A stretch of DNA of 62,449 nucleotides, the filler included, from an uncultured Methanosarcinales archaeon (lineage in GTDB: Archaea > Nanobdellota > Nanobdellia > Woesearchaeales > DATDXC01): NCBI GenBank assembly GCA_964510025.1. It is 4 parts of 3 records of this genome, joined end to end, with 100 filler letters (N's around TTAATTAATTAA, not from the genome) between each part and the next. Parts side by side here need not be neighbours in the genome. Positions count along the whole stretch, not along the records: positions 47,725 to 62,449 come from CAZDZV010000024.1; 3 more parts are not named here. One strand, 5' to 3'. Position numbers and translations under genes: made by a program. The notes below the pieces were generated by a model that saw only the letters and a list, made by a program, of their open reading frames with translations, did no database searches and had not been told where the DNA came from. Below are positions 11,143 through 62,449 of this stretch, in pieces (the stretch's first letter is position 1; the number at the start of each line of letters is the position of its first letter).

Positions 11143-11242
11143 NNNNNNNNNNNNNNNNNNNNNNNNNNNNNNNNNNNNNNNNNNNNTTAATTAATTAANN
11201 NNNNNNNNNNNNNNNNNNNNNNNNNNNNNNNNNNNNNNNNNN
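11143..11242. other. Artificial contig-joining linker
   Basis: N44-TTAATTAATTAA-N44 (stops in all six frames); identical linker occurs three times. Confidence 0.97.
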
Positions 11243-17799: not shown

Positions 17800-17899
17800 N
17801 NNNNNNNNNNNNNNNNNNNNNNNNNNNNNNNNNNNNNNNNNNNTTAATTAATTAANNNNNNNNNNNNNNNNNNNNNNNNNNNNNNNNNNNNNNNNNNNN
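17800..17899. other. Artificial contig-joining linker
   Basis: N44-TTAATTAATTAA-N44. Confidence 0.97.
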
Positions 17900-47624: not shown

Positions 47625-47724
47625 NNNNNNNNNNNNNNNNNNNNNNNNNNNNNNNNNNNNNNNNNNNNTTAATTAATTAANNNNNNNNNNNNNNNNNNNN
47701 NNNNNNNNNNNNNNNNNNNNNNNN
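47625..47724. other. Artificial contig-joining linker
   Basis: N44-TTAATTAATTAA-N44. Confidence 0.97.
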
Positions 47725-56870: not shown

Positions 56871-58325
56871 ATGAAAAAAAGTTTGATATTAGGACTACTG
56901 ATAATCATTGCACTTGCCGGTTCAGTCTTGGCGACGGCTTCGATAAGCTCCACTGATATAAGCTTTGGCGGAGAGAACCAGAGAAAAAGCAATCCAGATG
57001 CTGATGATGATGAAGACCAGGAATACAGGATAAGGGACACTGTTACCATCACCAATACCGGAAACGAGACTATTTCTGATCTTGCTTTGGACTCTACAAC
57101 AGCTGATCCAAGCAGATTTAACCTTAATGTCAGCAGCATTACGAAAACAACCCTTATGCCAGGTGAAACATCTATTGTTGAGCTGGAGATAACTGTTCCT
57201 GAGGATTTTGACGCTGTCGATAATAATCTTGAGCCAGGCCCTTTTGATATAGGCACTGCAAAGTTCAGATGCAATGCCACCGGCGTATTTGCAACCTCCA
57301 ATCTTAGGATGCAGGTTGAGAACATGCTTGAGATAGACAGGGTGAAAGTACGAGTTGGCGACCTTACAAAGGAGATTGTCAGCGACACTGAAGAGGATGT
57401 TAAAGACCTGAAGCCAAGCGATGAGGTTGAGCTGGTCATAAGGATAGAGAACAATTACAGGGACAGGGACCCTGAAGATATCGAGCTGGAAGATATCGAG
57501 ATAAGGATTGAGAATGACGACCTTGATGTAGATGAAGAGGAAAGCATTGATTCTATAGATCCTGATGAGACAGATGAAATTACGTTGGTCTTTGAGATAG
57601 ATGAAGACCAGGATGAAGATGATTATGACCTTATCATATTGGTAGAGGCAACAGATGAATTTGGAGCAAGACACGGAGAAAGGTGGATCATGACTTTAGA
57701 GGTTGAAAGAGAAGAATATGAGATAGCGATCAGAGAGGTAGAGCTCAGCCCTGAGGTAGTAGATAACTGCCTGCAGCGGAATGTTAATCTTGAGGTGACT
57801 GTCAAGAATATAGGCGCAAGGGATGATGATGAATTTGCAATTGAGGTCAGCGCACCTTCCCTGGCTTTCAGCGACAGTGAACGGGACATTGAGCTTGAGG
57901 AAAATGAGGAGGAAATCTATACTTTCCAGATACCTATCACAACTGACATTGATCCAGGTGATCATTTTATACAGATTGAAGCATTCTTCCAGGATGATGA
58001 GCCAAGCAATGCAGATGACATCACCTTGACAGTGAACGCATGCCAGACAGGAGACGAGGATGAAGAGGACGATGAAGAGGAGCAGGAAGACGAAGAAGAC
58101 ATGGATGAAGAAGAGCAGGAAGACGAAGAGGATGAAGAAGAGCAGGAAGACGAAGAGGATGAAGAGCAAGGAACACCGATCATCGTTGGCAAGCAGCCTG
58201 TATCTTCAGTTGAAGGGGGATTTACAAGCTCAACTGCTTACATTGTAATCCTTGTCATCGCAATAATAATTGCGGTTGCATCACTGATATTGACTTTTGT
58301 ATTGCTGTTTAGGCCCAAAAGATAA
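56871..58325 (+). CDS. Highly acidic membrane-anchored surface (S-layer-like) protein
   Basis: Signal peptide, Ig/CARDB-like domains, D/E linker with a 27-bp tandem repeat (58104-58157), C-terminal TM and basic tail. Confidence 0.82.
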   Translation: MKKSLILGLLIIIALAGSVLATASISSTDISFGGENQRKSNPDADDDEDQEYRIRDTVTITNTGNETISDLALDSTTADPSRFNLNVSSITKTTLMPGETSIVELEITVPEDFDAVDNNLEPGPFDIGTAKFRCNATGVFATSNLRMQVENMLEIDRVKVRVGDLTKEIVSDTEEDVKDLKPSDEVELVIRIENNYRDRDPEDIELEDIEIRIENDDLDVDEEESIDSIDPDETDEITLVFEIDEDQDEDDYDLIILVEATDEFGARHGERWIMTLEVEREEYEIAIREVELSPEVVDNCLQRNVNLEVTVKNIGARDDDEFAIEVSAPSLAFSDSERDIELEENEEEIYTFQIPITTDIDPGDHFIQIEAFFQDDEPSNADDITLTVNACQTGDEDEEDDEEEQEDEEDMDEEEQEDEEDEEEQEDEEDEEQGTPIIVGKQPVSSVEGGFTSSTAYIVILVIAIIIAVASLILTFVLLFRPKR

Positions 58326-58524
58326 ATTCTATTTTTTTATTTTATTTTGGTAACAAAAAATAGCCATATTTAGCTTTTTTTCGTCGGCAGACTAATTCTG
58401 TTATCTAAGGTTAGTAGCTAAAATTTATCCACTATCCATAATATACTTTGAAAAGCTTGGATTTACTTATATATGTTTAAGTCCGAAAATCTATATAAAT
58501 GAGCTCATCTTTTTTCTCTGATAA

Positions 58525-58808
58525 AGTAGTTATTGTTGGATAACTAACAATGTTTATTATTTTCAAGTGAATACAAAAATTTGGGGGAAAAGACATCCGC
58601 AACTAGCAGAATTCATAGTCATTCGTGACATTTGTAAGCTGAGGAGTTTGCTGGCCGAGTGCAAATTGAGTCTTCCTGAAGGCCTGGGAAAACTCATGCA
58701 ATTTCCGTCAGTTAACAACAAATGAGGTTTACAAAGTGGGGAAATCCCCACTATCGGCCAGGAAAGGCTTATGCCAGAACTGGTAAAAAAACAAAAGGAG
58801 GCTAAAAA
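58525..58808 (+). ncRNA. Long structured 5' leader (candidate cis-regulatory RNA)
   Basis: TATATAAA at 58492; multiple stems at 58603-58785; AGGAGG SD before ATG 58809. Confidence 0.55.
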
Positions 58809-59888
58809 ATGAGAAAAATTTTAGCAATAATTGCTGCTTTGTTGGTTCTAGTACCAGCATCATTAGCAGTTAGCGTTGGTTCTGGTCTGACACCAGACAT
58901 AGAGACAGAAGATTTTGCTCCTATGGTCTGGCTGTGCGACAACAGGGTTGTATATGACGATGCAACTGAACCAGGGCGAGTAAGTTTGGACGGCGAAGAG
59001 CTTGTCGAAAGGATGTACAACTACGCTTTCGAAGGAGAGCAGATAGCATGGAAAGTTCTTGTAATGGACAAGAACGGCGTTGAGAAGATAGAAGATGTAT
59101 TTGCCACAATCGGAAGCGCACAAGGTGCAGGCAACGACATCGAAGTGAACTGCCAGGAGACCAACAATCCAGCAACCATACCACGCAAGTGCAATGCCAG
59201 AATTCTTGAAGAAGATCTTTCTGGAGAAAGGCTGGATGAAGACACACAGCAGATGTATGAATGTACACTTACTGTAGAGACACCAGCAAGCATGTATGGC
59301 GAGTACTGGATAACAGTTGAAGCAACAGACCTAGATGGTTTGTCAGGAACAATGGATGAGAATGAGTATTGGTACCTAAATCCAGAGATTGCTTTGTCAG
59401 TCAATGGAGAACTGGCATTCGAGAATGTCAGGCCAGGTACAGCAGCTTATTCAGAGACACTGTTAGTCGGCAACGATGCTGATGCAGGTTCAGGAGTTAT
59501 CCTTGATATGTTCATATCAGGAACCGACTTCTACGACACATCAAGCAGCGGAGCAATGTGTCCGACAACAAACCAGCTTAGCCTTGACAGCTTCAAGTAC
59601 TATGCGGTTAATGGAGCTTACTCCACTGCAGACGATGCAGAAACCGGCAGAACTTGCGACGCAGAAGACTACTGTGACATCAATTATGGCATTGGATTCA
59701 ACGATCCAAATCCATTCTACGATGCACATGAGATTATCCAAGCTGGACCTGCTCCAGGACCATACTACGGAGCTAACATCCTCTCACCAGGTGCAGAGAT
59801 GTCAGTTACATTCAGGTTGGACCTGCCAGAGCCATGCAACGGCGACTTCGACGATGGAGAGATTTACTTCTGGGGCGAAGCAATCTAA
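58809..59888 (+). CDS. Secreted acidic protein, putative major filament/surface subunit
   Basis: Signal peptide, no TM anchor, paired Cys, C-terminal FRLDLPEPCNGDFDDGEIYFWGEAI; strong SD. Confidence 0.82.
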   Translation: MRKILAIIAALLVLVPASLAVSVGSGLTPDIETEDFAPMVWLCDNRVVYDDATEPGRVSLDGEELVERMYNYAFEGEQIAWKVLVMDKNGVEKIEDVFATIGSAQGAGNDIEVNCQETNNPATIPRKCNARILEEDLSGERLDEDTQQMYECTLTVETPASMYGEYWITVEATDLDGLSGTMDENEYWYLNPEIALSVNGELAFENVRPGTAAYSETLLVGNDADAGSGVILDMFISGTDFYDTSSSGAMCPTTNQLSLDSFKYYAVNGAYSTADDAETGRTCDAEDYCDINYGIGFNDPNPFYDAHEIIQAGPAPGPYYGANILSPGAEMSVTFRLDLPEPCNGDFDDGEIYFWGEAI

Positions 59889-59890
59889 AC

Positions 59891-59922
59891 GGGCGAAAGC
59901 CCAATTTTTTTATTTTTTTTTT
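59891..59922 (+). terminator. Hairpin plus long T-tract terminator
   Basis: GGGC-GAAA-GCCC followed by AA-T8-A-T10. Confidence 0.8.
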
Positions 59923-59974
59923 AGAAAAACTTCATATTCATCTGTCACTTTTTAAAAAATCGGGGGTAATCCAA

Positions 59975-61198
59975 ATGAAAAAGATAATGATAGCAATGGC
60001 CATAGCGTTGCTGCTGCCTAGTGCCTATTCTATGAGCATCGGCTCAGGCCTTACGCCGGATATACGCACAGAAGACTTCAAGCCCATGATATGGCTGTGC
60101 GGCAGCAGGATCGTCTATGATGATAATACAGAGCCGGGAAGGATCCTGGCAGACGAACTTGTCGAAAGGATGAGCAACTATGCATTCGAGGGGGAAGGCA
60201 TATCATGGAACCTGCTTGTCATGGACAAGAACGGCGTTGAGAAGATAAAGGATGTCTTTGTGTCTATCGGCCCTAACAATGATGCTAGGCGGATGGTCCC
60301 CTATACATATATAGACCCATACTGCATGGATGAATGCAGCGATCTCTATGATGACTGCGTATTGGACTGCAACAGCAGCCAGAGCTGCGAACAGCTCTGT
60401 GAGCAGGAAAGAGATTCATGCGAGGCAGGATGCGAAAGGACAGGCCTCAGGCTGGAAGCGAATGAGATACAGGTAAATTGCCAGAAAACCTGCGGGCCTT
60501 CGCAAATCCCGGCCTCGTGCAATGCGCGCATACTTGAGGAGCGCATCACCCGGTTCAATCCTGACACAATGGACTATTATGAATGCAGGTTTACAGTTGA
60601 AACACCACTATCGAACTACGGGGAGTATTTTGTTACGATTGAAGCAGAAGACATGGACGGCCTCTATAACTATGCAGATGAGGTCGAATATTGGTATCTT
60701 AATCCGGAGATAGCTCTGGCAATAGACGGCGATCTTCAGTTCCGCAATGTGCGGCCAGGGACAAGCAGCTATTCCCAATCATTGCTTGTGAGCAACGATG
60801 CAGATCAAGGCTCCGGCGTTATGCTGGACATGTTCATATCAGGAACCGACTTCTACGACACATCAAGCAGCGGAGCAATGTGTCCGACAACAAACCAGCT
60901 TAGCCTTGACAGGATAAGTTATTATACCTCAAGCGGATCATACTCAACGTCTGCAGATCCAAGAAGTGATCCAGAAGGATATGTCGGAATAGCCTACGGC
61001 ATTGGTTTTAATGATCCAAACCCGTTCTACAACAATGCTGAAATACTGCAGGCAGGACCGATGGTCGGCCCCTATTACAGGGCGAACATCCTCTCGCCAG
61101 GTGCAGACATGGCTCTCACCTTCAGGCTCGACCTGCCAGAGCCATGCAACGGCGACTTCGACGACGGGGAGATATACTTCTGGGGAGAAGCTGTGTAA
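59975..61198 (+). CDS. Paralog of 58809..59888 with Cys-rich helical insertion
   Basis: Colinear similarity with an insertion of C-x3-C repeats; real start MKKIMIAM at 59975. Confidence 0.82.
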   Translation: MKKIMIAMAIALLLPSAYSMSIGSGLTPDIRTEDFKPMIWLCGSRIVYDDNTEPGRILADELVERMSNYAFEGEGISWNLLVMDKNGVEKIKDVFVSIGPNNDARRMVPYTYIDPYCMDECSDLYDDCVLDCNSSQSCEQLCEQERDSCEAGCERTGLRLEANEIQVNCQKTCGPSQIPASCNARILEERITRFNPDTMDYYECRFTVETPLSNYGEYFVTIEAEDMDGLYNYADEVEYWYLNPEIALAIDGDLQFRNVRPGTSSYSQSLLVSNDADQGSGVMLDMFISGTDFYDTSSSGAMCPTTNQLSLDRISYYTSSGSYSTSADPRSDPEGYVGIAYGIGFNDPNPFYNNAEILQAGPMVGPYYRANILSPGADMALTFRLDLPEPCNGDFDDGEIYFWGEAV

Positions 61199-61200
61199 GC

Positions 61201-62449
61201 ATGAGCAGTCTCAGCAAGAAAGCATTGCCAATTGTAATCCTGCTAGCCTTAGCAGTGCAGATAGCTGAAGCGGAATTCTGGCTTTGCATGAATTATGGGG
61301 AGACGATCCAGTATTGCAACAACTATAAGCCTCCGCTGACGTGTGACAGCCAGACTGGCTGTGAAAGATGCATGTCGGTCTATGATGAGCCAAACAATTG
61401 TTTTATACATGGCTCATGGCCGAAATGCATGAACCTTGAAAGGGAATGCTTCACAGGAGGGGACACAGAGATAGATGCAGATCCTCCTGAGATGACAGTC
61501 ACTAGCCCGATAGAAGGGATGTACTACAATTCAAGGGCTGTTGAATTCATTATCAATCTGAACGAGCTCTCAGACCTCTATTACTATGATAACATAGAAG
61601 ACAGGGGCAGATGGAGCAGGCTTTGCACAGACTGCATAAGCTACAGCAGGAGCCTGAGCTTTGACGAAGGCTTGAATGATATAACGATAAGAGCTACTGA
61701 TGTGGTCGGAAATGCAGCAGAGCATGATGTGTTGTTTTACGTTGACAGCCAGGAACCGAAGATATACGAGACAACACCTGATGATGCAGAGTACGGCAAC
61801 GGCCTTTTCACTGTAGAATACACAGAAGAAGCCCTGCAAAAGGTGACGCTCCATTACAAGACAGACATATGGCATGAGATGGAGAAGACAGACTGCCCTG
61901 CCGGAGAGAGGCAGCTGTGTGAGTTTGACGTAGCTTTATCAGGCCAGCTCACAGTAGAGTACTATTTCGGGGTGTCTGATTCAGCCCAGACAGTTTATTC
62001 AGACCATAAGATGGTCTACATCGACACAGTAGATCCTGTGCTTACTGTAAGCGGCCCTATAAGCGAGCATGTATACGGTGACAGGAGGGTGCTGTTTGAC
62101 GTTGATGTTGACGAAGATGTACTGCTGGAATATTATGACCATGAAGATGACAGGGCAAGATGGGACAAGCTATGCTCTGACTGCGACGGTTATTCCAGGG
62201 AAGAGAGCTTTAAGGATGGCTTCCATGATATCAGCATAAGGGCAACCGACAATGCTGGAAACAGCGTGACTGTTAGAAGGGAATTTACTGTTGATAGCGA
62301 TGAGCCCAGGATATATGACACTCTGCCGGATGATGAGGAGTATGGCAACGGCCTGTTCACTGTAGAGTACACAGAAGAGCAGACCCTTGAATCAGTGACG
62401 CTCCATTACAAGACAGACATATGGCATGAGATGGAGAAGACAGACTGCC
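61201..62449 (+). CDS. Secreted Ig-like repeat protein (runs off window end)
   Basis: Manual translation MSSLSKKALPIVILLALAVQIAEAEFWLC...; Cys-rich N-terminus, repeated D..PP...SP...G...I.IRATD..GN units of ~184 aa; absent from the ORF track because no stop codon is present. Confidence 0.88.
   Translation, partial: MSSLSKKALPIVILLALAVQIAEAEFWLCMNYGETIQYCNNYKPPLTCDSQTGCERCMSVYDEPNNCFIHGSWPKCMNLERECFTGGDTEIDADPPEMTVTSPIEGMYYNSRAVEFIINLNELSDLYYYDNIEDRGRWSRLCTDCISYSRSLSFDEGLNDITIRATDVVGNAAEHDVLFYVDSQEPKIYETTPDDAEYGNGLFTVEYTEEALQKVTLHYKTDIWHEMEKTDCPAGERQLCEFDVALSGQLTVEYYFGVSDSAQTVYSDHKMVYIDTVDPVLTVSGPISEHVYGDRRVLFDVDVDEDVLLEYYDHEDDRARWDKLCSDCDGYSREESFKDGFHDISIRATDNAGNSVTVRREFTVDSDEPRIYDTLPDDEEYGNGLFTVEYTEEQTLESVTLHYKTDIWHEMEKTDC

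Follow-up and report, generated by a model that had tools for sequence, protein, structure and literature searches.

The locus described here raises the question why a gene for a secreted archaeal protein is separated from its predicted promoter by a long, folded leader, and what this RNA does for the gene. The DPANN genome carrying the leader (G000; 1.70 Mb, 97.7 % complete) encodes an archaeal SRP RNA (150.5 bits), the tRNA splicing endonuclease EndA, proteins of the L7Ae family (two PF01248 matches, 99.2 and 53.4 bits) and two beta-CASP nucleases. The window, i.e., the whole stretch of DNA that was analysed (62,449 nt), is not continuous; its N-runs at 11143-11242, 17800-17899 and 47625-47724 are contig joins, and the leader lies on contig C24. 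A sequence-only reading had described the region as a large, possibly switchable structured RNA upstream of a putative major filament gene. All the strings it quoted, among them the TATA box, the GUCA/UGAC hairpin, the stems and the GC-rich hairpin, were recovered at or within a few bases of where it had placed them (Table 1). Judged from the position of the TATA box, transcription would begin near 58520 and yield a leader of about 290 nt. Similar BRE/TATA elements are present in homologues 190-550 nt 5' of the start codon, with anchors partly picked by eye. The additional remark that most genes of this genome are leaderless was not borne out by a crude test on crude gene calls: 429 of 1444 calls had a TATA-like word at a distance of 20-36 nt 5' of the ATG, versus 190 in a control window. 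On contig C2 (117658-147723, minus strand) the genome also has a reading frame that stays open for about 10,000 codons.

Table 1 Predicted and observed features of the leader and its surroundings, positions along the window
Feature	Position	Strand	Remarks
BRE-like purine run and TATA box	58484..58499	+	predicted promoter, from sequence; TATA element 58491-58499
AT-rich inverted repeat, weak 5' hairpin or DNA operator	58527..58546	+	recurs in most of 32 leaders
SD-like G-run without start codon behind it, putatively STAB-SD-like	58583..58587	+	no start within 13 nt
Small GUCA/UGAC hairpin, with conserved single-stranded CAUA-like stretch 5' of it	58618..58629	+	helix 1 of alignment A6, 85 % paired
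Long rod-like hairpin	58634..58732	+	outer stem 58634-40/58726-32, lower 58650-58/58704-12, upper 58667-76/58687-96
k-turn-like motif, non-bulged strand	58639..58643	+	tandem G.A pairs with 58724-25; by eye from A6
Invariant core, 5' strand, U-G-Y-A-A-W-N-U	58659..58667	+	short helix and 3-nt A-rich bulge; U, G, A, A, U in 13/13
Invariant core, 3' strand, A-W-G-C-A	58696..58704	+	with 1x3 loop or 2-nt bulge; G, C, A in 13/13
k-turn-like motif, bulged strand	58719..58726	+	4-nt bulge in window; by eye from A6
GC-rich hairpin	58735..58752	+	most homologues have one, of different sequence
Last hairpin 5' of A-rich spacer	58757..58784	+	apical GCUUA common to G077, G347 and G042
Shine-Dalgarno GGAGG 3' of A-rich spacer	58797..58801	+	rank 118/1440 crude genes by pairing with the canonical anti-SD
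359-aa secreted protein, two beta-sandwich domains, no Pfam family; probable surface-fibre subunit	58809..59888	+
Short GC hairpin, then long U-tract	59891..59925	+	predicted transcript 3' end, from sequence
Tandem paralogue without leader, probable minor subunit	59975..61198	+

Folding of 58515-58820 gave a z-score of -4.37, reached by none of 100 shuffles, and folding of 58609-58808 one of -3.90 (0 of 200 shuffles). In a control set of 240 further long upstream regions from this genome, each compared with 12 shuffles, z fell below -3 in 5 % and below -4 in 1.7 %; the gene of the leader itself was absent from this control set, having been missed by the crude gene caller. The most structured region of the set lies on contig C1, in the 200 nt upstream of about 128479 (plus strand), with a z of about -11.7. 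The minimum-energy fold of the leader consists of the small hairpin, the long rod, two more hairpins, the A-rich spacer and the GGAGG. Of the nested stems proposed earlier, the outer (58631-40/58726-35) and the upper one (58667-76/58687-96) were retained. The proposed middle stem CTGAGGAG/TTCCGTCAG is paired in 67 % of cells across 13 homologues and had to give way to a helix of 58650-58658 with 58704-58712, paired in 93 %. A large structured leader upstream of this gene is supported by a better-than-chance fold and, as detailed below, by covariation and a constant genomic position. A second copy of the leader was not found in its own genome. An identity with the SRP RNA was dismissed, the SRP RNA being located on contig C10.

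The downstream protein starts with a signal peptide; residues 20-32, which follow this peptide, were of low confidence in the monomer model. Its C-terminal domain was modelled with a pLDDT of 92.8. In fold comparisons of this domain TLP-1 fibrils ranked first (TLP-1b: Z 7.6, rmsd 3.6, 146 aligned residues; Foldseek E 6e-4), PapD-like domains tied at Z 7.3, and further matches were cannula (5.8), TasA (5.6) and bundling pilus (5.5); as a group, TasA, cannula, bundling-pilus, thread and chaperone-usher pilins reached Z 4.8-6.0. The full-length fold search returned generic Ig-like matches only. TasA, CanA, AbpA and TLP-1 are donor-strand filament subunits, and the weak resemblance of the C-domain to the TasA/TLP-1/cannula fold, with Z values of 5.5-7.6 for the fibre-type matches, is in a range that may reflect a common arrangement only. 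The earlier naming of a putative major filament gene is thus sustained by a weak fold likeness and weakened by the tie with PapD-like domains; going by the models, the protein is likely a subunit of a surface fibre. By codon bias the gene ranked 643 of 1410, against a poor reference set. Hairpins or U-tracts comparable to those at the predicted transcript end follow many of the homologous genes. Secreted Ig-like proteins flank the locus at window positions 56871-58325 and 61198-62449; their domain matches were NEW3/DUF7507 (weak) as well as Big_13 and glucodextranase-B, and in the protein at 56871-58325 an extended acidic tract is combined with a membrane anchor at the C-terminus. Possibly, the flanking proteins are anchor and tip parts of the fibre.

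The protein family was detected in 9 of 61 relatives and in 45 of 401 genomes of the order, the latter tally including one unpublished genome on which nothing else rests. Named homologues belong to Woesearchaeota, Pacearchaeota, other Nanoarchaeia and Aenigmarchaeota. From these names and the archaeal SRP RNA, EndA and L7Ae-family genes, the carrier genome is taken to be that of a DPANN archaeon, most likely a member of Woesearchaeota. Two collection scans with the single protein rather than an alignment, a thin sampling, yielded 4 and 17 loci, mostly Pacearchaeota-like. In one homologue (L028), on a record labelled Methanosarcinales, the protein module makes up the tail of a bigger protein that is rich in cysteine and aspartate; this is possibly a mis-binned DPANN contig. 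Forty upstream regions were taken, from the matches that start near the N-terminus. Four leaders are near-copies of that in the window in their sequence pattern (G077, G347, G055 and G002), and a covariance model (R1) identified six further copies among 73 sources. A second model (R2), built from 11 sequences, had 13 matches in 11 of the 40 gene-carrying genomes and none in the other 29; with a copy added in G215 the motif is present in 14 copies, 12 genomes and 8 families. All covariance-model matches are located upstream of genes of this family, with 23-113 nt to the ATG in the 13 copies measured. Two of the matches, in G200 and before a paralogue in G143, were outside the training set, and the one in G200 precedes a homologue of only 26 % identity that was missing from the initial protein list. 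Within single genomes (G143 and G042) the leader accompanies paralogues. In 150 genomes of the order R1 had four matches, each of them a training sequence. R2 had one match among 150 genomes of the class, two among 41 relatives of G347 and none in four named genomes, some of these searches having been run under stricter filters. Away from this gene family no leader was found in the genomes searched with R1 and R2, and a pattern with 20 specified bases had no match in viral contigs. Loci of the Pacearchaeota type have the gene and short leaders without the motif; in their copies (L029-L047) a near-invariant stretch surrounds the Shine-Dalgarno sequence. The leader is thus conserved, folded and tied to one family of secreted DPANN proteins.

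In the 13-row alignment (A6) 92.8 % of 433 cells were paired and 26 of 35 pairs changed on both sides, values equalled by none of 500 shuffles and compared with 35-40 % pairing in slid controls, but inflated by an alignment that was fitted to the structure and by rows that are related. RNAalifold on a plain alignment of five leaders, not fitted to the model, proposed 33 pairs, in nine of which both sides had changed. What is conserved is a single long, unbranched hairpin together with the small hairpin upstream. Within the rod, an internal core is 84 % identical over the 13 copies, compared with 44 % elsewhere, and has eight invariant bases. Here a UGY/GCA helix is flanked by two asymmetric loops: on its upper side lies an A-rich bulge, on its lower side either a 1x3 loop or a bulge of 2 nt. 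In the closest copies the core comes near to two-fold symmetry. Such an invariant core implies a specific binding partner. A presumed likeness of the core, judged by eye, to c-di-GMP-I P2, SAM-I P3, SRP helix 8, RAT antiterminators and H/ACA guides was rejected, as the surrounding architecture and an Rfam score were absent in each case. At the base of the rod a k-turn-like motif was recognised by eye with the criteria of PMC6298567. Its bulge has 3 nt in G077, G347, G055, G087 and G241, the motif is weak in G002, and in 6 of the 13 copies of A6 it was not seen.

The 5' part of the leader has its own recurrent elements. A run of at least four G or GGGTG occurs 30-140 nt after the TATA box in 31 of 32 leaders with anchors set by eye and in 33 of 38 with automatic anchors, whereas the background in the long upstream regions of the genome is 0.225 per 100 nt. 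No start codon follows the run in the window, G012, G241 and G143; many other homologues have an ORF behind it, of unconserved length and frame, and a conserved uORF was not found. An attenuation leader with a uORF was discarded, since no conserved short ORF overlaps competing folds. The AT-rich inverted repeat lies about 10-25 nt after the inferred transcript start. A covarying 5'-terminal hairpin at this position was unsupported, the sequence being conserved without covariation beyond shuffles (alignment A7; 73.5 % paired, 380 of 500 shuffles as high); going by its sequence, the repeat could be a repressor operator of the fibre operon. The small-hairpin pattern was present in 17 of 38 leaders, a few of them off position, compared with a background of 0.07 per 300 nt, and is also kept in leaders that have no long hairpin. 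Most first-gene leaders without the core fold strongly, many with z below -3, while several internal paralogues do not; several of these core-less leaders consist of simple arrays of hairpins, of which the first, small one is common to them and the window. Since leaders lacking the core are still strongly folded, structure as such seems to be selected. Plain arrays of four or five hairpins with the common first hairpin were noted in L057, L058, L063, L086, L070 and L073, and also in L066, L068 and L071. Another conserved leader type occupies the last 170 nt before the ATG in L050 (G213), L056 (G141) and L005 (G008). By eye, it has a k-turn-like loop in the opposite orientation, and one of its stretches can pair in two ways, either with a G-rich arm upstream of it or with the 3' end, a possible pseudoknot or switch. 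At the 3' end of the leader, the GGAGG is a sequence that precedes 5 % of the crude genes. Its predicted unpaired probability ranges from 0.10 to 0.91 across 13 leaders; for the window it comes out at 0.10 or at 0.49, according to which stretch is folded. An even better Shine-Dalgarno sequence (rank 6 of 1440) and a leader of about 100 nt with a hairpin precede a gene on contig C19 (7290-9863, minus strand) whose product we take, from its N-terminus, to be S-layer-like.

Does the leader switch? The suggestion derived from a helix CTGGCCGA/TCGGCCAG (58651-58/58754-61) that crosses the rod. This helix is real in this genome, with a duplex energy of -16.6 kcal/mol that none of 200 shuffles reached, a weak result as one success in 13, chosen post hoc; none of the 12 homologues has a comparable helix. 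The fold containing it lies 2.4 kcal/mol above the minimum and makes up about 5 % of the ensemble. The middle stem of the earlier reading, paired in 67 % of cells versus 93 % for the helix it would displace, could still form in the four copies closest to each other. Without ligand, the stems below and above the core have a probability of at least 0.92 in all 13 whole-leader folds, that of the 3-bp core helix varying from 0.2 to 0.99. No anti-SD is conserved, the pairing partners of the Shine-Dalgarno sequence being scattered over the 13 leaders, and neither a conserved terminator nor another expression platform was found in the homologues. With a crossing helix private to this genome, stems predicted to form without ligand and no conserved anti-SD or uORF, the term switchable was not supported. 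The idea of a c-di-AMP riboswitch fared no better. In favour of a variant of the ydaO family speak a 13-nt segment that recalls it and the two near-equal folds in the window, yet this segment belongs to a covarying stem, of which it is the 3' strand, variable in sequence, RF00379 had no match at the gathering threshold, locally at E ≤ 10 or in five carrier genomes at E ≤ 10, and no diadenylate cyclase (DAC domain) was detected in G000 or in five other carriers (84-98 % complete). The c-di-AMP riboswitch is a multi-junction fold with two pockets, the c-di-GMP-I riboswitch a three-way junction with tetraloop-receptor docking. Both (RF00379, RF01051) are likewise cis leaders before cell-surface genes, with short, unscored sequence likenesses to the leader; the leader, however, is a two-way rod rather than a junction, and no model score, cyclase or expression platform was found. 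A c-di-GMP-I riboswitch was rejected for want of an Rfam match and a third helix, and GGDEF was not found in G000. We regard a c-di-AMP variant as hardly credible. The invariant unpaired adenines next to a short helix, in cis before a surface-fibre gene and without Rfam match, might still form a small rod-shaped aptamer. As a riboswitch of a new class, it would respond to a metabolite or to a signal from the host and tune fibre production. Eight invariant core bases are few for an aptamer, the flanking stems are prefolded, an expression platform is not conserved, and the motif is tied to one gene family in which many orthologues have plain hairpins instead; a new aptamer is thus quite improbable.

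A protein could take the place of a small ligand. L7Ae, or another protein and possibly the gene product itself, might shift the leader between the rod and an alternative fold and thereby alter translation or decay. Archaeal L7Ae represses mRNAs via k-turns in their 5' UTR (PMC5539422, PMC6298567), and with its tandem G.A pairs and GAU-type bulge, as read by eye, the k-turn-like motif at the base of the rod resembles those leaders, in a genome with L7Ae-family genes. The partner implied by the core and the second fold at 2.4 kcal/mol in the window are in line with such a switch, as is an alternative fold of a CUGAGGAR stem and a UUUGC/GCAAA hairpin, possible in the closest homologues and paired in 67 % and 75 % of cells over the 13. 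In the cases described in these two sources the Shine-Dalgarno sequence lies in or beside the k-turn, whereas here it is about 70 nt downstream. The hairpin is predicted to be stable without protein, the outer pairs of the alternative helices show no covariation and fail in about half of the copies, no anti-SD is conserved, and it is not the k-turn, dispensable in some copies, but a different motif that never varies. On balance we consider a regulated protein switch rather unlikely, yet the most probable of the alternatives. Much less probable is a separate small RNA gene that is merely sited before the fibre gene: the TATA box and the stable fold of small-RNA size would suit it, but the stretch from the hairpins to the Shine-Dalgarno sequence has neither a U-tract nor a clear TATA box, and the motif travels with paralogues in G143 and G042 and was not found away from the gene family in the genomes searched. 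Finally, the core might be a relaxed bulge-helix-bulge (HBh') that is cut by the tRNA splicing endonuclease, so that splicing or processing of the leader would leave it with a new, protected 5' end. A helix of 4 bp, a 3-nt A-rich bulge and a closing helix can be formed in 11 of 13 copies via one of two registers, and the genome encodes EndA. However, this gene is a single EndA subunit gene, and EndA is a mostly shape-reading enzyme, for which invariant base identity of a substrate is unexpected. HBh' is a recognised relaxed form, and DPANN α4 EndAs with the L3 loop accompany more disrupted tRNAs (PMC5829648); several tRNAs of this genome also appear, by eye, to carry D-loop insertions. The HBh'/BHL substrates described for archaeal EndA (PMC5829648, PMC12397907) share the 4-bp helix, the 3-nt bulge, the opposite-strand loop and near two-fold symmetry with the core, which differs in its invariant bases, its site in a 5' UTR and a second bulge that in the consensus fold is 2 nt or 1x3 and in no copy cleanly 3 nt. 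Cleavage by EndA is in our view improbable, if somewhat less so than a new aptamer. The tRNA genes that, judged by eye, seem to carry D-loop insertions, some with a second intron, lie at C1:36023-36140, C1:123865-123984, C1:74635-74786, C2:12787-12902 and C13:14777-14919.

The role we propose, at about even confidence, is that of a platform, folded constitutively and bound by protein, which stabilises the mRNA and sustains a high level of translation of the probable major subunit of a surface fibre. Transcription from the TATA box at 58492 would produce the leader of about 290 nt. The G-run without start codon might hold a small ribosomal subunit in place, and the stacked hairpins would bar the beta-CASP nucleases of the genome from degrading the mRNA in the 5'-to-3' direction. 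An RNA-binding protein, probably dimeric, may read the near two-fold-symmetric core, L7Ae may bind the basal k-turn in the copies that have one, and the A-rich spacer would leave the strong Shine-Dalgarno sequence usable. Most transcripts might end at the hairpin and U-tract before the paralogue and so set the ratio of major to minor subunit. Stabilising leaders of this kind have been described in bacteria. The 5' UTR of lactobacillus slpA, as reported in PMC10221546, stabilises its mRNA and exposes the ribosome binding site; like the leader here, it is long and has stable stem-loops before the strong ribosome binding site of a secreted structural protein. The present leader differs in being archaeal (TATA promoter, DPANN) and in having the invariant core with its two loops, the start-less G-run and, in about half of the copies, a k-turn-like motif; its role is predicted. 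STAB-SD, described as a 5' stabiliser of the Bacillus thuringiensis cry3A mRNA (PMC4113751), is likewise a non-initiating SD-like run in a long 5' UTR, and beta-CASP nucleases are encoded here, too. In contrast to STAB-SD, the G-run is not a perfect Shine-Dalgarno sequence, ribosome and nucleases are archaeal, some homologues have a start codon behind the run, and ribosome binding is putative. The stabilising role explains the invariant core least: a pure stabiliser needs no invariant loops, so the core counts against one. Against it also stand the k-turn, absent in about half of the copies, and the Pacearchaeota-type loci, which do without the motif. As the predicted accessibility of the Shine-Dalgarno sequence varies widely, it cannot be claimed that this site is always open.

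The leader matches no catalogued Rfam family. At the gathering threshold a single tRNA was the sole match in the window, and at E ≤ 10 the region gave six weak, unrelated matches; 14 homologous leaders had no match at E ≤ 1, and six further loci gave a single weak match off the motif. A description of the motif was not found in the searched open literature on riboswitches and structured or non-coding RNA of Woesearchaeota and DPANN, while supplements of large motif screens could hold it. It is best read as an undescribed type of structured 5' leader of surface-protein genes. For DPANN archaea hardly any cis-regulatory RNA structures have been catalogued, and here a well-covarying motif is tied to a widespread, unnamed family of secreted proteins that possibly builds a host-attachment fibre. 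As a short defined RNA of about 50-125 nt it is open to probing, pull-down and EndA assays without culturing the organism. Should EndA or a ligand act on the leader, this would be a new mode of archaeal mRNA control, and in the case of EndA the production of the fibre would be coupled to the tRNA-processing capacity of the cell. More generally, the leader suggests how a reduced symbiont might make one structural protein in bulk.
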